From the NCBI RefSeq assembly GCF_024700885.2, contig NZ_CP117016.1: DNA of 64,000 nt; one strand, given 5' to 3'. Each line of letters begins with the position of its first letter. Position 1 is the first letter of the stretch. Shown piece by piece: positions 2,543 through 41,734 of the stretch. The position numbers and the translations under genes are program-made. Under the pieces are notes generated by a model that searched no databases, was not told the DNA's origin, and was given only the letters and a program-made list of their open reading frames with translations. This DNA comes from Escherichia coli. GTDB lineage: Bacteria > Pseudomonadota > Gammaproteobacteria > Enterobacterales > Enterobacteriaceae.

Positions 2543-3007
2543 CTAACGCAAATGATGCACCACCTGATTGCTGCTGCCGCGCCAGATCAGGGAAGGGTCT
2601 TTTAAATCCTGCACAAATTTGCCGTCGACCAGTACGTTAATCAAATCAACAACCTGCATTTGCGCAGCGTTGAGTTCGTCGAGTTTATAGCCTGTCCACA
2701 CCCAAATGTCTTTACCCGGACATTCGGCGCGGATTCGTTGTACCAGTTTCAGAATATCCGGCACGTTTTGCGGATGCAGCGGATCGCCGCCGGAGAGGGA
2801 AATACCCTGGCGTTTGATGCGAGTGTCATTCAGATCGTTAATGATCTGGTCTTCCATTGCTTTGGTAAATGGCTGACCGGAATTTACCCGCCAGGTGCTT
2901 TTGTTATAGCAACCGGGGCATTCATGAACACACCCGGAGACAAACAGGGTGCAGCGAGTGCCGGGGCCGTTGACGATGTCGACAGGATAGTACTGATGAT
3001 AATTCAT
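2543..3007 (-). CDS. nrdG: anaerobic ribonucleotide reductase activating protein (radical SAM)
   Basis: 154 aa with the CxxxCxxC motif (CVHECPGCYN). Recognised as NrdG. Confidence 0.95.
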   Translation of the reverse strand: MNYHQYYPVDIVNGPGTRCTLFVSGCVHECPGCYNKSTWRVNSGQPFTKAMEDQIINDLNDTRIKRQGISLSGGDPLHPQNVPDILKLVQRIRAECPGKDIWVWTGYKLDELNAAQMQVVDLINVLVDGKFVQDLKDPSLIWRGSSNQVVHHLR

Positions 3008-3013
3008 TATTTC

Positions 3014-3142
<129 letters not shown>

Positions 3143-3164
3143 TTTGCTTAGCGCAGAGTGAAGA

Positions 3165-5303
3165 TTAACCTATCTGCCCATTTCCCAAATGTTTAACGCG
3201 GCGCTTAACTTCTTCCTGCTTACCAGCGTTAAACGGACGTGCATCCGGGCTACCTAAATATCCGCACACGCGGCGAGTCACCGATACACGGGAGGTGTCA
3301 TGGTTACCACATTTCGGACAAGTGAAGCCTTTACTAGTGCACTCGAACTCACCGGTAAAGCCACACTCGTAGCACTCATCGATCGGCGTATTGGTGCCGT
3401 AATACGGTACATGCTGATAGCTGTAATCCCAGACATCTTCCAGCGCCTTCAGGTTGTGCTGAATGTTTGGATACTCGCCGTAGCAAATGAAACCACCGTT
3501 CGCCAGCGGCGGGTAAGGCGCTTCAAAGTCGATCTTGTCGTATGGGTTCACCTTCTTCTCCACATCGAGGTGGAAACTGTTGGTGTAGTAACCTTTATCG
3601 GTCACGCCCGGCACCACGCCAAACTCAGCGGTATCGAGACGGCAGAAGCGGTCGCACAGGTTTTCACTTGGCGTGCTGTAGAGACTGAAACCGTAACCCG
3701 TTTCTTCTTTCCACTGATCCACTGCCTGACGCAGACGTTCAACAATTGCGATACCTTTCGCGCGAAGCTGCTCGTTGTCGTAAACATGCTCGCCGCCGAA
3801 CAGCGCGTTAATGGTTTCGTGGATGCCGATGTAACCCAGCGAAATAGACGCACGACCGTTTTTGAAGATTTCAGAAACATCATCGTCAGCATTGAGACGC
3901 ACGCCACAAGCACCTTCCATATAGAGGATCGGGGCCACGCGCGCTTTCACGCCTTCGAGACGAGCGATACGGGTCATCAGCGCTTTACGTGCCAGCACCA
4001 GACGTTCATCCAGCAGCTTCCAGAAGGTGGCTTCATCGCCTTTTGCTTCCAGAGCAATACGCGGCAGGTTCAGGCTGATCACGCCGAGGTTGTTACGACC
4101 ATCGTGGATCTGCTCGCCGTTTTCATTTTCCCACACGCCGAGGAAGCTGCGGCAGCCCATCGGGGTTTTAAACGAACCGGTGACTTTCACTACCTGATCG
4201 TAGTTCAGGATATCCGGATACATGCGCTTGCTTGCGCACTCCAGCGCCAGCTGTTTGATGTCGTAGTTCGGATCGCCTTTTTTATGGTTCAGACCATCGC
4301 GAATTGCAAACACCAGTTTCGGGAACACCGCAGTTTTACGGTTTTTACCGAGGCCTGCGATACGATTACGCAGGATAGATTCCTGAATCAGGCGCGATTC
4401 CCAGCTGGTGCCCAGACCAAAACCAAAGGTTACAAACGGTGTTTGACCGTTGGCGGTGTGCAGGGTGTTTACTTCGTACTCCAGCGACTGGAAGGCATCG
4501 TAGCACTCTTTGATGGTACGAGAGTTAGCGTAGCCTTCGGCGTCCGGGATGTTCCACTCTTCTGCGGTCTTGCGATGTTTGTTGTAGCTGGCGGTGACAA
4601 ACGGTGCCAGCACTTCATCGATACGGTTAATGGTGGTGCCGCCATAAATATGGCTGGCGACCTGGGCAATAATCTGCGCAGTTACCGCGGTTGCCGTAGA
4701 GATCGACTTCGGCGGTTCAATCTCGGCGTTCCCCATTTTAAAGCCCTGGGTCAGCATGCCTTTCAGGTCGATCAACATGCAGTTGAACATCGGGAAGAAC
4801 GGTGAGTAATCGAGATCGTGATAGTGAATATCACCACGTTCATGTGCCTGCACCACGTCACGCGGCAGCAGGTGCTGGCGTGCATAGTGTTTAGCCACGA
4901 TCCCGGCCAGCAGATCGCGCTGGGTTGGAATCACCTTGCTGTCTTTGTTGGCGTTTTCGTTGAGCAACGAGGAGTTGGTCTGCTCGACCAGACCACGGAT
5001 CTCCTGGTTCAGGCGGCCGCGTTTTTCACGTTCAATGTCGCGATCGTGACGGTACTCGATGTAAGCACGAGCCAGTTGTTTGTATGGACCCGACATCAGC
5101 TGGTTTTCAACTGCGGTCTGGATCTCATTGATATCCACCTGGTTGCGGCCCTGCATCTGCTCGCTGACAACCGCAGCAACAGTGGCGCAATAATCGGCAT
5201 CATCGACTTCCGCTGCTTTAGCTGCACGCAGAATCGCTTCTTTGATGCGCTCTGATTTAAACGGCACTTTGCAGCCGTCTCGTTTCATCACATGCGGTGT
5301 CAT
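3165..5303 (-). CDS. nrdD: anaerobic ribonucleoside-triphosphate reductase
   Basis: 712 aa with an ATP-cone N-terminus, a C-terminal Zn-ribbon CxxC..CxxC and the glycyl-radical motif RVCGYLG. Confidence 0.97.
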   Translation of the reverse strand: MTPHVMKRDGCKVPFKSERIKEAILRAAKAAEVDDADYCATVAAVVSEQMQGRNQVDINEIQTAVENQLMSGPYKQLARAYIEYRHDRDIEREKRGRLNQEIRGLVEQTNSSLLNENANKDSKVIPTQRDLLAGIVAKHYARQHLLPRDVVQAHERGDIHYHDLDYSPFFPMFNCMLIDLKGMLTQGFKMGNAEIEPPKSISTATAVTAQIIAQVASHIYGGTTINRIDEVLAPFVTASYNKHRKTAEEWNIPDAEGYANSRTIKECYDAFQSLEYEVNTLHTANGQTPFVTFGFGLGTSWESRLIQESILRNRIAGLGKNRKTAVFPKLVFAIRDGLNHKKGDPNYDIKQLALECASKRMYPDILNYDQVVKVTGSFKTPMGCRSFLGVWENENGEQIHDGRNNLGVISLNLPRIALEAKGDEATFWKLLDERLVLARKALMTRIARLEGVKARVAPILYMEGACGVRLNADDDVSEIFKNGRASISLGYIGIHETINALFGGEHVYDNEQLRAKGIAIVERLRQAVDQWKEETGYGFSLYSTPSENLCDRFCRLDTAEFGVVPGVTDKGYYTNSFHLDVEKKVNPYDKIDFEAPYPPLANGGFICYGEYPNIQHNLKALEDVWDYSYQHVPYYGTNTPIDECYECGFTGEFECTSKGFTCPKCGNHDTSRVSVTRRVCGYLGSPDARPFNAGKQEEVKRRVKHLGNGQIG

Positions 5304-35418: not shown

Positions 35419-35503
35419 GCCGAAGTGGCGAAATCGGTAGACGCAGTTGATTCAAAATCAACCGTAGAAATACGTGCCGGTTCGAGTCCGGCCTTCGGCA
35501 CCA
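35419..35503 (+). tRNA. leuX: tRNA-Leu (CAA), complete, 85 nt with encoded CCA
   Basis: GCCGAAGTGGCGAAATCGGTAGACGCAGTTGATTCAAAATCAACCGTAGAAATACGTGCCGGTTCGAGTCCGGCCTTCGGCACCA. It has a long variable arm and anticodon loop TTCAAAA. Confidence 0.97.
35479..35503 (+). repeat. direct repeat copy 1 (att core inside leuX 3' end)
   Basis: GGTTCGAGTCCGGCCTTCGGCACCA, identical to 41077-41101. Confidence 0.95.
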
Positions 35504-36016
35504 AGTCACTAAATTCCTTACAATACAGGTAGTTAGACAATAAAATCTGTCTCTTTTGCCTGTAAGAAATGCTCTGTTATGTCCCTTGAAAAAGCCGCTG
35601 TGGTTGATAGTGGTAATTGGGATGTTAACTCATAGCGGCGTGTAGTTCCAAGCGTCAAACACGTACTGACTCAACTTGAAAGCTATGACGTAGCCACTGT
35701 CTCTAAACAATCCCAAAAACTTTTAGTGAAGCGCATTTTAGCCCGATGCCCCCGTTCTGCCGCTGTCGCGAGACGCCGCAGGGGATAAACAGGTTTATGG
35801 TGGTCACGGTACTTGCAGACCATATGCAAGCTCTGCCAGCGGTTCGGCCTCGCTCCCCTTGGGTACATGGTCATCCTGATAAGCCTCACTAACTGACATA
35901 ACTGTGATGTAGTCGCCAGAGGCTCCGCTTGTTGTCTTACCACCAACGGGGCTTTATGGATTCTATTGCGGTATGTTTGAAAGTGCGCGGGGGTTCATTC
36001 CCGCGCGTCCGGCGCT

Positions 36017-36931
36017 TTATGGTAAGTATTTAAGTATTTCTGCTGCCCAGTTTACACGGTGGATGACACGGGCATGGTGCAAGTTTCCGTCTAGTATTTC
36101 GGCTTTAGTTAGCTGGGATAACTGCTGCCAATTATTGTTAAGTATATAAGTTGCGTTATTACATTGTGAGCTTTCTAGCACGTAAATGTTTTGGCCTGTG
36201 AACCCAAATATCACGTAGCCTTGGAACCCAGCTTGCCCAACCGCTACGAAATCTGGTTTTTTACTATTGATAAGTTCAAGTCTGCCTTCAACAACAGCGG
36301 TATTGCCCTTTCCCCTGATCTTAATAGCTGAAAGGATTTTTGAGCCGATAGTACTCCAAGGCTGTTGACCCTGAGGCAGGAGGCTCCAGTTTAGTTTTAT
36401 AGATTTACTTTTAACGATGGTATTAAGTTGGTCGTCAACAGTTTCGCACAACCCAAAAAGCTCTAAAAAAAGATTAATGCAGTGAGCCACTAACTCTTTG
36501 TTGTTAGCTGTCAAACTTAGCTTTGGAGAGATGATCAACTTCTCCCCTTGAAGATTCTCTACAATCTTTAACTCTATGCTTGGTGGAGGGGTGAGGATTC
36601 TCTTGTAGCGCTTATACTCAATTTCACGAGTGTCAGTAACTTCTTGAGTTGCGCCCCCTCCGATCCATTGCTTTCTAGTCCATGAAATTTGTCTGTATGC
36701 AGTTTCTTTAGGTGCTGTTTTGTCAGGTACTGATTTGCCATTAGCATTGAATCTGGTTATTGGCCCTAAAATCTTGGGGAGGACTTCTTCACCTAAAGCT
36801 CTTTGACTTGAGAAACCAATAGAGTCCGTTTTCCCCGCATCTGGCAAAGAATGTGCAATGTAGATATCACGGCCATCAAAGTTAGGTATGTAATTATCAA
36901 TATTTCGAATACGCTTTTTCTGAATAAGCAT
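36017..36931 (-). CDS. orphan 304-aa protein, no family recognised
   Basis: Long AT-rich ORF with SD AAGGAA 7 nt upstream of the ATG. A GCGCGGG..CCCGCGC hairpin lies after the stop. No motif that I can assign. Confidence 0.75.
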   Translation of the reverse strand: MLIQKKRIRNIDNYIPNFDGRDIYIAHSLPDAGKTDSIGFSSQRALGEEVLPKILGPITRFNANGKSVPDKTAPKETAYRQISWTRKQWIGGGATQEVTDTREIEYKRYKRILTPPPSIELKIVENLQGEKLIISPKLSLTANNKELVAHCINLFLELFGLCETVDDQLNTIVKSKSIKLNWSLLPQGQQPWSTIGSKILSAIKIRGKGNTAVVEGRLELINSKKPDFVAVGQAGFQGYVIFGFTGQNIYVLESSQCNNATYILNNNWQQLSQLTKAEILDGNLHHARVIHRVNWAAEILKYLP

Positions 36932-37094: not shown

Positions 37095-37787
37095 ATGCCC
37101 ATCATTTATACATGAGCACAACATATAGGGTGTGTTAATAAGATTACCCCCTACATGTTCAGCATTCTAGTTAGGATTCTTTGCAGTACAAGGGGTGATT
37201 TTGAGGTTAAATTGAGGTTGTCAAAGGGAAATTTCGACCAACCCTACGTGCCGTAAGGCTTAGGCTGTATGTCAATGTTTCAGAAAAAAAATGAAAATTT
37301 GATCGAGTGCTGATTTCTTTAGCACGAGAACATGAGATCGAACCAAAATATTGCAAAGTTTTGAACAAAACTTGAGCTGCCTCGTGTCTCCATAGCCAAG
37401 ACGAATGCAGTTTAAATAAGCTAAGTCAGCTCTCAAAAGTCCTTTATGACCCGAACCAAAAATTGTACCTCTTAAACCCCCACCGCAAGCGGCTCTCCGG
37501 GGTTTGTGCGCGTGGAGTAATGCGATTGTACTGGGTATGTGCGCACAACCCTCTACAAGCCGCATTCTACCGTTAGCCTATAGCTGAATCCCCGGCTTGA
37601 AAAATTGCACGCTTATGGTTGCCCCTCCCTCAACTGTATAGCTCGCCCGCGCCCCCGTGCGCATGTGCGTGCCCGCGCGTCAGGGGTCGCTGAGAAAACC
37701 CTAAGATTTTGCTCATCCGAGACAACCGTTGCAGGCGCGCGTTGCCGGGGCACACTGTTAGTGTTTGATGGTGTCATCAATCGACCG

Positions 37788-37884
37788 TTTTCTGGCACCT
37801 CCCAATCGCACGCTTTCACACTGTTGGAAAAATAGCCTTGGCTTTTCTGGCAGGCCATCCTAATGTTGGCCTCGTTTTCTGGCA
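37788..37884 (+). promoter_or_regulatory. three direct copies of TTTTCTGGCA upstream of the recombinase gene
   Basis: Copies at 37788-37797, 37843-37852 and 37875-37884. Copy 2 sits in the imperfect palindrome GAAAAATAGCC-TT-GGCTTTTCTG. Confidence 0.4.
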
Positions 37885-37906
37885 GGGGTCAGATGGGGAG
37901 ATAACA

Positions 37907-38467
37907 ATGGCAACTTTTGGCTACGGACGTGTTTCGACATCGCAGCAGGATACTGAGAACCAACGGCTGGAGCTTGGGCAGGCTGGGTGGCAAATTGATT
38001 ACTGGTTTGCCGATGTTGTTAGCGGGAAGGTTCCGGCAATGCAACGTAAAGCATTTTCTGAAATGCTCAATAAAATCCGCGATGGTGAAACGTTGGTGGT
38101 AGCGAAGCTTGATCGTCTGGGGCGTGATGCGATTGACGTCCTGCAAACGGTAAGGGCGCTGGCTGACCGTAATATCAAGGTTCTTGTCCACCAGCTTGGT
38201 AACACAGATCTCACTTCTGCCGCTGGGAAGTTGCTATTATCTATGCTCGCCGCGGTTGCGGAGATGGAGCGTGATCTGCTGATTGAGCGCACTCAGGCGG
38301 GACTATCACGAGCAAAAGCCGAAGGTAAGAAATTGGGCAGACCTCCTAAAATCGCGTCAGAAGCCCGTAGAGAGATTTTAGAGAAAAAGAATAGCGGTTT
38401 GAGTATCAGTGCGTTAGCGCGTCAATATGGCGTTTCAAGAGCGACTGTAGCAGCTATTACCGATTGA
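37907..38467 (+). CDS. small serine recombinase (resolvase/invertase family)
   Basis: Start at MATFGYGRVSTSQQ (catalytic Ser motif) with SD GGGGAG upstream. Contains DRLGRD and the C-terminal HTH GLSISALARQYGVSRATV. 186 aa. Confidence 0.9.
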   Translation: MATFGYGRVSTSQQDTENQRLELGQAGWQIDYWFADVVSGKVPAMQRKAFSEMLNKIRDGETLVVAKLDRLGRDAIDVLQTVRALADRNIKVLVHQLGNTDLTSAAGKLLLSMLAAVAEMERDLLIERTQAGLSRAKAEGKKLGRPPKIASEARREILEKKNSGLSISALARQYGVSRATVAAITD

Positions 38468-38480
38468 ATATGGAGAGTTT

Positions 38481-39326
38481 ATGGCTTACACAGCAACTGT
38501 TATCCCTGTAATGATTGCTTCTCCTGGTGATGTCGCTGAAGAGAGACAAGTCATTCGTGAAATGATCCATGAGTGGAATGATATAAATTCAGCTCGTTCA
38601 AAAGTAATGTTGACACCAATTGGATGGGAAACTCATACATCACCCGAATTAGGAGTTAGGCCTCAGAAGTTGATTAATCAAAGATTATTAGTAGATTGTG
38701 ATTTATTAATCGGTGTGTTTTGGACTCGTCTAGGCTCACCGACTGGGAACGAGGCCAGCGGAACAGTCGAAGAAATCCACCGTCATTTGAATGCGGGAAA
38801 ACCGGCAATGATTTACTTTTCCTCAAAGCCTGTTGCCCCTGAAAGCCTTGATAGAGAACAATATGAGTCTCTTAAATTGTTCAAAACTGAGTGCATGCAA
38901 AAGGGATTGATAGAGTCTTTTAATGACTTATCTGATTTCAAAGACAAAGTCCGTAGGCAACTTTCGATAATTATTTCTAGTAGCCCTTATTTGTCTTCTC
39001 TTATATCTACCATTAACAATTCTCCTGATGCGAATACAAGTCAATCTTTGCCAGAAAGTAATTTGTCCGCCGATGCACTCAGTTTGCTGAAATTGGCATG
39101 TGTCGATGATAGCGGAACAATTTATGTGATAAGGCATTTAGGTGGCACGGATATTCAAGCGGGAAATCAATCCTTTGGTGGAAGTTCGGCTAGAGAGGTA
39201 GCCCGTTGGGAGGGCGCACTTAACGAACTGTTATCCTTTGATTATGTGATTGAAAGAGGGGCAAAAGGACAAATGTATTATGTTACTCATAAAGGCTGGA
39301 CATTTCTTGAATCTTTAAATGAATAA
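38481..39326 (+). CDS. DUF4062 / TIR-like (nucleoside 2-deoxyribosyltransferase-like) N-terminal domain protein with an unknown C-terminal domain
   Basis: N-terminal VMIASPGDVAEER ... CDLLIGVFWTRLGSPTG..ASGTVEEIHRHLNAGKPAMIYFS matches my memory of the DUF4062 pattern. Lies 13 nt after the recombinase stop with SD GGAGAG upstream. Confidence 0.6.
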   Translation: MAYTATVIPVMIASPGDVAEERQVIREMIHEWNDINSARSKVMLTPIGWETHTSPELGVRPQKLINQRLLVDCDLLIGVFWTRLGSPTGNEASGTVEEIHRHLNAGKPAMIYFSSKPVAPESLDREQYESLKLFKTECMQKGLIESFNDLSDFKDKVRRQLSIIISSSPYLSSLISTINNSPDANTSQSLPESNLSADALSLLKLACVDDSGTIYVIRHLGGTDIQAGNQSFGGSSAREVARWEGALNELLSFDYVIERGAKGQMYYVTHKGWTFLESLNE

Positions 39327-39360
39327 TTAAATGCGAGGCCATTACATAAGTTTATTTTTG

Positions 39361-39390
39361 ATGTGAGGGTGAATTCCCTCACATTTTTAT
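39361..39390. terminator. bidirectional terminator between convergent genes
   Basis: ATGTGAGGG-TGAATTC-CCTCACAT hairpin with T-runs on both sides. Confidence 0.7.
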
Positions 39391-39881
39391 TCGAAAGAGG
39401 CCGCAATGACTTCTCCTGTTTTTGCGTTGAAAACACAAAAGTATTGAAGCGGAGCTAGCATCCCCAAGCCGTTAACTACCTTAGCTTGTTGCCCAAATGC
39501 CTGAATAATCTTCGCATTCTCATCGTGCCAGAGATAAGTATTAAATACAGGCGCTTCGCTTTCTTGCCACACATGGCGAAACTTCGCTTTCTCATCCATT
39601 ACCTTTTTGCACTCCCTGACCGGGTTATGGTGCGTTTTCGCATAGCATTCCGGGTTGTCATCTGCACATACGATATCTTTTCGTGCTGTCTGATGCTCAG
39701 CACCTACAGCAGAAAAGGCGCATACGCCCAGCACCAATGAGAGAGTGCCCAGAGCACCCCATACAGTTGCGCGTAGCGTGCTGATGTGCTGCTTTGATAC
39801 AGCATGGGCAACTACACTATAACTGGCCCAGCTAATCGCGGCTCCCGCTGCAATCGGTAGTAAAAAGTCTGCTCCCGTCAT
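39387..39881 (-). CDS. small membrane protein (2 predicted TM helices plus a Cys-containing soluble domain), unknown function
   Basis: Start chosen at MTGADFLLPIAAGAAISW with SD GAGGGAA upstream. A second hydrophobic stretch is VWGALGTLSLVLGVCAFSAV. Confidence 0.65.
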   Translation of the reverse strand: MTGADFLLPIAAGAAISWASYSVVAHAVSKQHISTLRATVWGALGTLSLVLGVCAFSAVGAEHQTARKDIVCADDNPECYAKTHHNPVRECKKVMDEKAKFRHVWQESEAPVFNTYLWHDENAKIIQAFGQQAKVVNGLGMLAPLQYFCVFNAKTGEVIAASFE

Positions 39882-40121: not shown

Positions 40122-40586
40122 ATGAAAAAATCCCTGAGAATACAGTTTGGCGAGCGGGTAAAAGAACTGCGCATTGCCACCGGATTGAGCCAGGAGGCCT
40201 TTGCCGATCGGTGCGGGTTTGCACGTAGTTATATGAGCAGAATTGAACGTGGTGGCTCTAATGCGTCTCTGGATGCGATTGAGGTGCTGGCTAACGCTCT
40301 GAGCGTTGAGCCGTGGCAGTTGTTAGCGCCTGGCCCATCTGAAGATAACGACTCGGAACTGTTGGTTCCATACGCAGCCGATGGTTCCTGTTTTCACCCC
40401 GGTTTGGCGAGCACCCGTGATGGCTCGTTTGGCGTAGGTGATAAAGCGGCTCAGAAGCGTTTTGGCACGTTTGCTGAAGCTCTTGAGTATCTTCGTAGCA
40501 TGGAGACAGCAAAATGGCGTAGGCCTAATCCTAGCGGCAACTGGGGTATCGTATCAGCGGTTCGGTGGGACAAACTGAGAAAGTAG
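40122..40586 (+). CDS. XRE-family HTH regulator with an approximately 85-aa C-terminal extension
   Basis: MKKSLRIQFGERVKELRIATGLSQEAFADRCGFARSYMSRIERGGSNASLDAIEVLANAL is a canonical Cro/C1 HTH. The start is uncertain: there is no clear SD, and an alternative start lies at 40029. Confidence 0.75.
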   Translation: MKKSLRIQFGERVKELRIATGLSQEAFADRCGFARSYMSRIERGGSNASLDAIEVLANALSVEPWQLLAPGPSEDNDSELLVPYAADGSCFHPGLASTRDGSFGVGDKAAQKRFGTFAEALEYLRSMETAKWRRPNPSGNWGIVSAVRWDKLRK

Positions 40587-41076: not shown

Positions 41077-41101
41077 GGTTCGAGTCCGGCCTTCGGCACC
41101 A
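41077..41101 (+). repeat. direct repeat copy 2 (leuX 3'-end remnant)
   Basis: GGTTCGAGTCCGGCCTTCGGCACCA with no tRNA body upstream. Confidence 0.95.
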
Positions 41102-41114
41102 AAAGTATGTAAAT

Positions 41115-41287: not shown

Positions 41288-41734
41288 ATGGCATTAACAG
41301 ATATCAAAGTCAGAGCAGCCAAGCCAACGGATAAGCAATATAAGCTGACTGATGGTGGCGGTATGCATCTGCTTGTCCATCCAAATGGTTCTAAGTACTG
41401 GCGTTTGCAGTACCGTTATGAGGGAAAGCAAAAAATGCTGGCACTTGGGGTTTATCCTGAAATCACACTAGCGGATGCCAGAGTACGTCGTGACGAGGCG
41501 CGTAAGCTGCTTGCGAATGGCGTCGATCCGGGAGACAAAAAGAAAAATGATAAGGTTGAACAGAGTAAAGCACGAACCTTTAAAGAAGTCGCGATTGAGT
41601 GGCATGGCACCAATAAAAAGTGGTCTGAAGATCACGCCCATCGTGTGCTAAAAAGTCTTGAAGATAATCTTTTTGCAGCGCTTGGTGAACGTAATATCGC
41701 TGAGTTAAAAACTCGAGATTTATTAGCACCTATT
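41288..41734 (+). pseudogene. intB: P4-type tyrosine integrase, N-terminal approximately 149 codons only
   Basis: MALTDIKVRAAKPTDKQYKLTDGGGMHLLVHPNGSKYWRLQYRY... is the conserved P4 Int/IntB N-terminus. Similarity stops after ...KTRDLLAPI, and no catalytic R..HxxR..Y domain follows. Confidence 0.85.

Follow-up and report, generated by a model that had tools for sequence, protein, structure and literature searches.

The gene at nt 38481–39326 of the DNA analysed here, a 64,000-nt stretch of an Escherichia coli chromosome (contig NZ_CP117016.1; hereafter the window), specifies a DUF4062 protein that, judged by homology, is probably a single-gene, sensor-coupled NADase of abortive-infection defence. 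Its N-terminal part (aa 1–148) is a divergent DUF4062 domain of the TIR-like kind, and its C-terminal part is predicted to be a small winged-helix-like module that recurs behind many other effector domains. Most current annotation tools label the gene as hypothetical or DUF4062, and PADLOC returns only a partial match to a candidate system. If the proposed role is correct, the gene would give pathogenic E. coli lineages such as ST648 a native defence that depletes NAD+ and needs one gene only.

The open reading frame (ORF) begins with ATG on the plus strand and codes for 281 aa, a product identical to RefSeq WP_000331918.1, which carries the name 'DUF4062 domain-containing protein'. It is not a chance ORF, because more than 2,100 homologues were retrieved, the best 120 of them full-length and with identities of 52–99%. 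The residues M1-A2-Y3 are kept among the homologues, which fixes the start codon. An earlier note on this DNA, made from the sequence alone, quoted a number of motifs, all of which (including the C-terminal strings) are found in the translation: VMIASPGDV at aa 10–18 followed by E21-R22, CDLLIGVFWTRLGSP at aa 73–87, GTVEEI at aa 94–99 and GKPAMIYFS at aa 106–114.

The Pfam profile of DUF4062 (PF13271) matches aa 10–99 of the protein (E = 8.9e-5, 23.1 bits), and full-length orthologues with 52–60% identity score above its cut-off (25.0 bits for P0069). The closest profile to the N-terminal domain is PDC-S60, a PADLOC defence candidate with a model of 906 positions, the N-terminal 170 of which match aa 8–167 (E = 1.3e-26). 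The window protein lacks the long C-terminal repeat region of PDC-S60 and carries instead an 85-aa winged-helix-like module. A canonical DUF4062 protein (P0248) gives no PDC-S60 match, and the window domain therefore belongs to a distinct sub-clade. Annotated DUF4062 proteins of Enterococcus share 35% identity with it (E = 2e-20). In the AlphaFold2 model of the complete protein (mean predicted local distance difference test score, pLDDT, of 80), strands and helices alternate along the N-terminal domain, which adopts the alpha/beta fold of TIR and nucleoside-deoxyribosyltransferase-like proteins; the same likeness of fold has been reported for the DUF4062 domain of PsAvs2 by Le Mouellic et al. 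Searches of the window protein found no detectable sequence match to the Pfam TIR families, no matching DUF4062 entry in the PDB and no family in NCBIfam or PHROGs. Profile, fold and motif conservation all support the DUF4062/TIR-like assignment that had been proposed for this domain.

Among the 40 family members aligned, D17, V18, R22, W49, Q62, D74, G85, S93, E97 and E98 are conserved in all. When canonical DUF4062 proteins and the Enterococcus plasmid DUF4062 protein are compared, the only invariant columns of the N-terminal domain are D17, Q62, D74, G85 and E98. E98 aligns with the Glu of the canonical S-Y-x-x-x-E-Y motif and is predicted from the alignment to be the equivalent of the catalytic glutamate, which in DUF4062 domains opens the helix behind the third strand. 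As it is both invariant and placed on the motif Glu, E98 is the residue to mutate, with E97 a family-specific second acidic residue. The acidic pair previously noticed in GTVEEI is thus conserved in both positions (40 of 40), and its predicted catalytic member can be specified as E98. Mean pairwise identity of the N-terminal domain across phyla is 70%, and an enzymatic domain that stays about 70% identical from Enterobacterales to Planctomycetota, Chlorobi and Nitrospira marks an unusually conserved family.

In Nostoc, Rhodococcus and Enterococcus, N-terminal domains of this clade are followed by unrelated C-termini. The Nostoc relative is a protein of 532 aa with a PDC-S65-like C-terminal region. 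In Enterococcus faecalis, plasmid NZ_CP124933.1 (nt 2995–3996; locus L092) encodes a DUF4062 protein of 333 aa whose N-terminal domain falls in this clade and which is carried by about 155 Enterococcus plasmids; its gene adjoins an Abi-family gene, a RelE/ParE toxin–antitoxin pair and a small serine recombinase gene.

Downstream of the DUF4062 domain, AlphaFold2 places two stalk helices (aa 150–167 and 169–179) and then a poorly modelled linker (pLDDT below 50 at residues 180–192). Across the family the stalk shows 39% identity and the linker about 13%. The C-terminal domain, formerly put at about 110 aa and matched to nothing, is accordingly shortened to about 85 aa (aa 195–281) and can now be placed, as a winged-helix-like module common to many other effector fusions. 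When aa 185–281 were modelled alone, the result was a confident structure (pLDDT 88.4) consisting of a helix, a three-stranded sheet, a long helix, a hairpin and a final helix, and aa 195–281 of this model are read as a divergent winged-helix-like module. The weak Foldseek matches of the domain are to eS10, the MarR-type proteins BpsR/HpaR, viral F93, CodY and MukE. Pfam returned HTH_45 below threshold for the window domain itself, and HTH_45, MksE, DUF4364, EarA, TrmB and MarR_2 for its relatives.

With the 97 C-terminal residues as query, an exhaustive HMMER search returned 627 cluster representatives, of which 43 had E ≤ 1e-10. The module is nearly always C-terminal and is sometimes duplicated. 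In 91 multi-domain examples, the N-terminal partners include DUF4062 (20), TIR_2 (14), CAP12/Pycsar TIR (4), TIR (3) and ThsB-TIR (1), along with PIN_8, PIN_12, RelA_SpoT and DndB. A separate family of proteins of about 310 aa combines a canonical DUF4062 domain with the same C-terminal module; a search seeded with one of these (P0248) returned environmental proteins only. Shuffling of both the N- and the C-terminal domains is a hallmark of sensor–effector defence proteins, and it is on this basis that the C-terminal domain is argued to be a sensor. A bolder and rather doubtful extension is that the module may be an undescribed, widespread phage-sensing domain that lacks a Pfam family, differs from the published AUX regions of Swarozyc and Evangelion, and is attached to killing domains of six or more kinds (two DUF4062 clades, TIR, PIN, RelA/SpoT-like and DndB-like). 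In that case many defence proteins with no other relationship would respond to a single conserved phage cue, and the E. coli gene would be a tractable entry point to that cue. A sensor module common to TIR, PIN and RelA/SpoT fusions would provide a concrete handle on what such proteins sense.

The search also returned proteins of 80–130 aa that consist of the C-terminal module alone (P0169, P0171, P0172 and others), which could be metagenomic fragments, regulators or decoys. One protein (P0217) carries two tandem copies of the module.

Three preprints of 2026 describe DUF4062 as a TIR-like NADase in abortive-infection immunity (bioRxiv 10.64898/2026.05.01.722283, 10.64898/2026.09.04.749371 and 10.64898/2026.06.25.731849), and the catalytic Glu has been found to be required for defence and NAD+ depletion in KpSwz, PsAvs2, Vulcan (E98), Vesta, Eva01 and human TEP1. 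The suggestion, made before the present analysis, that the N-terminal domain belongs to the NAD+/nucleotide-processing domains of conflict systems was therefore correct in kind, as these studies demonstrate such activity for other DUF4062 proteins. By a comparison that relies on homology, the window protein would be an additional DUF4062 defence protein of this kind, and its main novelty would lie in the promiscuous C-terminal module, the predicted sensor.

The most similar architecture is that of Swarozyc. In KpSwz of Klebsiella pneumoniae, DUF4062 (aa 1–164) is followed by a helical stalk and an AUX domain of the HTH/winged type; the autoinhibited oligomer becomes active when AUX binds the phage portal, and the products are ADP-ribose (ADPR) and nicotinamide (Osinski et al. 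2026, bioRxiv 10.64898/2026.05.01.722283). The window protein, of similar size, likewise unites DUF4062, a helical stalk and a putative HTH/winged AUX-like domain in one chain, has no obligatory partner gene, and belongs to single-gene systems of Enterobacterales defence islands, with a predicted conversion of NAD+ to ADPR and nicotinamide and a predicted abortive outcome. The published landmark residues of KpSwz (D16, R18, D71, E97, W176, W238 and Y239) were used for comparison, and D16-x-R18, W176 and W238-Y239 have no counterpart in the 40 family members examined. At the first of these the family has D17-V18 followed by one of [ASFTYL] at position 19, never R; most members lack Trp between W81 and W243, and the C-terminal domain contains no W-Y/F. 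Judged by these published residues rather than by sequence alignment, the window protein is therefore not an orthologue of KpSwz. A look-up of the cluster that contains the window protein did not show WP_202404386, WP_341800075 or UPI0002A39D72, which are listed in the supplement of Osinski et al.

In the second study DUF4062 was renamed NIR, and the systems Avs2-NIR, Vulcan (NIR-HEAT, catalytic E98) and Vesta (NIR with an alkaline phosphatase) were described (Le Mouellic et al. 2026, bioRxiv 10.64898/2026.09.04.749371). The catalytic residue of Vulcan bears the same number as that predicted in the window protein, which is a lead only, and PDC-S60 is possibly related to Vulcan. The HEAT repeats of Vulcan are absent from the window protein, with its 281 aa and 85-aa C-terminal domain, and the adjacent alkaline phosphatase gene of Vesta has no counterpart, nor does the window gene have any conserved neighbour.

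Evangelion (Eva01–Eva04) combines a DUF4062 core with an AUX region (Ibarra-Chavez et al. 2026, bioRxiv 10.64898/2026.06.25.731849). Core and compact AUX are both required, the system consists of one gene carried by mobile elements, and infection lowers NAD+. The core motifs were compared by their published residues (F11, W51-E52, E87-Y88 and W162). The W-E motif (W51-E52 in Eva01) is found as W49-E50 in the window protein and as W49-E/D50 in its family, and E98 is present; agreement with the Evangelion motifs as a whole is partial. The window gene is chromosomal and island-borne in E. coli, whereas Evangelion is found on a resistance plasmid, and the Enterococcus plasmid DUF4062 relative, with 35% identity in the N-terminal domain, has an AUX region unrelated to the C-terminal domain of the window protein. 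The same logic of sensor plus TIR is seen in Thoeris ThsB, TIR-SAVED, TIR-STING/CAP12 and the SARM1-type NADases, and the very same C-terminal domain is fused elsewhere to Pfam TIR_2, TIR, CAP12-TIR and ThsB-TIR domains. DUF4062 differs from these TIR effectors in being a separate family.

Drawing on these homologies, a mechanism can be proposed. The N-terminal domain would be a TIR-like NAD+ glycohydrolase with E98 as its catalytic residue, and in the uninfected cell it would be kept inactive in an oligomer held together by the domain itself and by the stalk helices (aa 150–179). The C-terminal module (aa 195–281) would bind a phage-derived trigger, either protein or nucleic acid, and binding would rearrange or cluster the N-terminal domains into an active assembly. 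Conversion of NAD+ to ADPR and nicotinamide would then cause NAD+ to collapse, and the infected cell would cease to support phage replication. The upstream serine recombinase would play no part. Enzymatic activity, autoinhibition, trigger and abortive outcome are each carried over from the homologous systems.

Several findings weigh against this proposal. The Pfam DUF4062 score of 23.1 bits lies 1.6 bits below the curated cut-off of 24.7. Foldseek matches of the C-terminal domain to winged helices are weak, the best having an E value of 0.016, and none is significant. The E-Y dipeptide of Evangelion (E87-Y88) is replaced by E98-I99 in the window protein and by E-I/V in the family, and the junction residue W162 of Eva01 is absent from the family, in which F153 is conserved instead. 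No recognised defence system adjoins the DUF4062 gene in the window, and many of the neighbours in other species are housekeeping genes. The E. coli protein assayed by Osinski et al. (UPI0002A39D72) may be either the window protein or its 65%-identical allele of 282 aa.

A variant of the proposal concerns the chemistry of the N-terminal domain, which might act on another nucleotide, in the manner of the CMP hydrolase MilB or of nucleoside 2-deoxyribosyltransferases, or might produce a signalling isomer of ADPR like ThsB, rather than deplete NAD+ in bulk. The clade does diverge from canonical DUF4062 in the extra invariant E97 and in P55-E56-L57 and Q62-x3-N66, which lie in a longer loop, and activation of Eva01 perturbs several adenine metabolites (Ibarra-Chavez et al. 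2026, bioRxiv 10.64898/2026.06.25.731849). However, all DUF4062 domains assayed to date give ADPR and nicotinamide with no cyclic products, and beside the gene there is no conserved effector able to read a signal, so that a different chemistry appears unlikely.

The relationship of the gene to the recombinase was assessed by a scan of gene neighbourhoods using one genome per species, which covered 280 relatives in many phyla, and 80 species-level loci were analysed. A serine recombinase gene is directly upstream in three of the 80 loci, all of them in Enterobacterales, and 1.2–1.6 kb away in three others; in the remaining 74 there is none within 10 kb. Across the 80 loci no neighbour was found to be conserved with the DUF4062 gene, the largest neighbour clusters being generic LysR, response-regulator, integrase and SDR paralogues, and the gene is therefore considered a single-gene system that is carried as cargo of a recombinase-bearing module. 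The recombinase–effector unit envisaged in the earlier note, for which co-occurrence across genomes had been suggested as a check, does not survive this comparison. Co-transcription of the two genes is plausible in itself, as had been thought: the gap is 13 nt, there is no terminator between them, and the spacing is kept in other Enterobacterales. In the window it is likely, and it reflects the carrier element and not the mechanism. More generally, a gene may stand beside a recombinase because of the element that carries it and not because of the system to which it belongs.

A functional partnership, in which the recombinase switches or mobilises the effector gene or the effector stabilises the element of the recombinase, would be favoured by the 13-nt gap without an intervening terminator in all enterobacterial copies, by the conserved, repeat-bearing leader upstream of the recombinase, which marks a boundary of the module, and by the serine recombinase genes near the gene in the three further distant loci and beside the Enterococcus plasmid relative. 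It is nevertheless improbable, given the 74 loci that have no such gene within 10 kb and the 45–58% identity that the family maintains across phyla without a recombinase. In addition, the inverted repeats around the gene or its promoter region are not convincing (21 nt with 76% identity in the best pair), and all 25 of the E. coli matches listed are collinear single pieces. Resolvases are common passengers of plasmids and islands, which also counts against a recombinase–effector unit.

A non-immune role as a winged-helix DNA-binding regulator, with the N-terminal flavodoxin-like domain as a receiver or ligand-binding domain, would suit the weak matches of the C-terminal domain to MarR, TrmB, HTH_45 and MksE winged helices and the housekeeping genes among the neighbours, but is very improbable, as the catalytic-type Glu and other DUF4062 landmarks are invariant, the same C-terminal domain occurs in fusions with PIN nucleases, RelA/SpoT and genuine TIR domains, and the distribution is patchy, horizontally transferred and island-borne.

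Returning to the defence proposal, the sister loci of the window gene place it next to type I restriction–modification (R-M), McrBC, Mrr and OLD-family genes. When two flanking genes per side were inspected in 37 loci, they included genes of BREX (PglZ, BrxL), PifA, a CBASS cyclase with a 4TM effector, type I R-M specificity subunits and PD-Lambda-3, as well as housekeeping genes.

In Enterobacterales, the DUF4062 gene is cargo of a module of about 3 kb, which runs from the res-like leader to the XRE regulator, within small, integrase-borne islands. The order of genes is a DUF6538-tyrosine integrase, a small ORF, a variable gene (DUF1643 or a 304–306-aa protein), the recombinase, the DUF4062 gene (alleles of 278–282 aa), a membrane protein (165 aa) and an XRE regulator. 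The module is often found at leuX, and type I R-M, McrBC, Mrr or OLD-family genes then follow. Of 5,426 complete E. coli genomes, 498 (about 9%) carry the recombinase–DUF4062 stretch that served as query, 391 of them as near-identical copies and about 107 as diverged alleles. Between sister alleles in E. coli, the DNA of the recombinase and N-terminal domain is 76% identical, and that of the downstream genes 92–94%. The C-terminal domain is the most diverged segment among the E. coli alleles of the module, and the DNA of the C-terminal half (nt 38948–39282) is too diverged from three of the sister loci (L082, L087 and L089) to be matched by blastn. This mosaic pattern, as read from the alignments, is consistent with replacement of the sensor domain or with diversifying selection. 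None of the phage genomes in INPHARED encodes the window protein, and in IMG/VR only 14 contigs do so, mostly at contig ends.

The surrounding chromosome carries lptFG, yjgR, ahr and the tRNA-Leu(CAA) gene leuX (nt 35419–35503), and 26-nt repeats of leuX delimit a 5.6-kb islet that contains the DUF4062 gene (Table 1). The GC content is about 40% over the gene and about 52–56% in the adjoining core genes. On its plus strand the islet carries the genes for the recombinase, the DUF4062 protein and an XRE regulator, and on its minus strand a 304-aa ORF and the gene for a membrane protein of 164 aa. The truncated integrase gene of the next island begins at nt 41288, beyond the islet. The 636-aa DUF6538-integrase found in sister islets is missing, and the first 480 bp after leuX (nt 35479–35959) match, with 97.5% identity, the DNA behind the attR repeat of another E. 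coli locus (L087), where they form the start of an Mrr-containing island. The absence of the integrase, and a left 480 bp that derives from another leuX island, show that the islet is a recombined, integrase-less remnant.

The stop codon of the recombinase gene (TGA, nt 38465–38467) is followed by the spacer ATATGGAGAGTTT, in which GGAG stands 5 nt before the ATG of the DUF4062 gene. The gap of 13 nt and the separate Shine–Dalgarno sequence had both been noted and are confirmed; the same spacing is present in the sister enterobacterial loci L082–L091. The bidirectional terminator described downstream is not supported. The hairpin at nt 39360–39385 (−16.1 kcal/mol) is followed by a U-tract on the plus strand only, while the minus strand continues as CAAAAAUAAA, and it therefore terminates the DUF4062 gene and is merely a shared hairpin for the convergent gene.

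Table 1. Coordinates of the DUF4062 gene, its parts and the surrounding features of the leuX islet in the window.
Feature	Position (nt)	Strand	Details
3' end of leuX, left copy of the 26-nt direct repeat bounding the islet	35479–35504	+	
304-aa ORF in the variable slot upstream of the recombinase	36017–36931	-	
Module leader	37772–37906	+	Three direct copies of (CG)TTTTCTGGCA(GG) at 37786, 37841 and 37873
Small serine recombinase, 186 aa	37907–38467	+	Resolvase (E = 8.8e-37) and HTH_7
Spacer from recombinase stop to DUF4062 start	38468–38480	+	13 nt, GGAG Shine–Dalgarno
Complete DUF4062 plus winged-helix-like gene	38481–39326	+	ORF, RefSeq name, >2,100 homologues
N-terminal TIR-like DUF4062/NIR domain (aa 1–148), predicted effector	38481–38924	+	
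E98 codon, predicted catalytic glutamate	38772–38774	+	Neighbouring invariant E97 codon at 38769–38771
Two stalk helices (aa 149–180) and disordered hypervariable linker (aa 181–194)	38925–39062	+	
C-terminal winged-helix-like module (aa 195–281), predicted sensor	39063–39323	+	
Intrinsic terminator of the DUF4062 gene	39360–39393	+	10-bp stem, then TTTTTATT; −16.1 kcal/mol, z = −3.3
Predicted membrane protein, 164 aa, two transmembrane segments, convergent with the DUF4062 gene	39387–39881	-	RefSeq coding sequence; phrog_20749 full-length, E = 5e-102
XRE-family HTH (helix-turn-helix) protein, last module gene	40122–40586	+	HTH_31, HTH_3; PADLOC control-protein and capH models
Right copy of the 26-nt leuX repeat, islet end	41077–41102	+	100% identical to the left copy

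The remaining genes of the islet vary in how well they can be placed. The 304-aa ORF had no match in Pfam, NCBIfam, PADLOC or PHROG; in sister loci the variable slot is occupied by a protein of either 155 aa (DUF1643) or 306 aa, and the ORF is possibly another cargo or defence gene. The recombinase is about equally close to the gamma-delta/Tn3 resolvases (gamma-delta, 1.4e-25) and the Gin/Hin invertases (DNA invertase, 6.5e-23). The gene for the membrane protein is present in L082–L091 and is not conserved outside the enterobacterial module, and the XRE gene, the protein of which has a C-terminal extension of about 90 aa, is present in L082–L090. These two genes are divergent and in Enterobacterales always stand beside the recombinase–DUF4062 pair.

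In an alignment of six loci, homology among copies of the module sets in sharply, about 135 bp ahead of the recombinase ATG, and to the left of the leader there is a different gene at each locus. The leader is possibly a res-like site and promoter region. It resembles a res-type recombination site with a second role as cassette junction, and its use as a site of exchange of defence cassettes between islands is a possibility. A search of the 975-bp non-coding stretch upstream of the recombinase with Rfam found only the tRNA. An invertible segment was also considered and rejected, as the inverted repeats are only weak. Lastly, the 90%-identity cluster to which the window protein belongs also holds recombinase proteins of 186–188 aa, which suggests that a fused or mis-assembled recombinase–DUF4062 ORF bridges the two somewhere in the collection.

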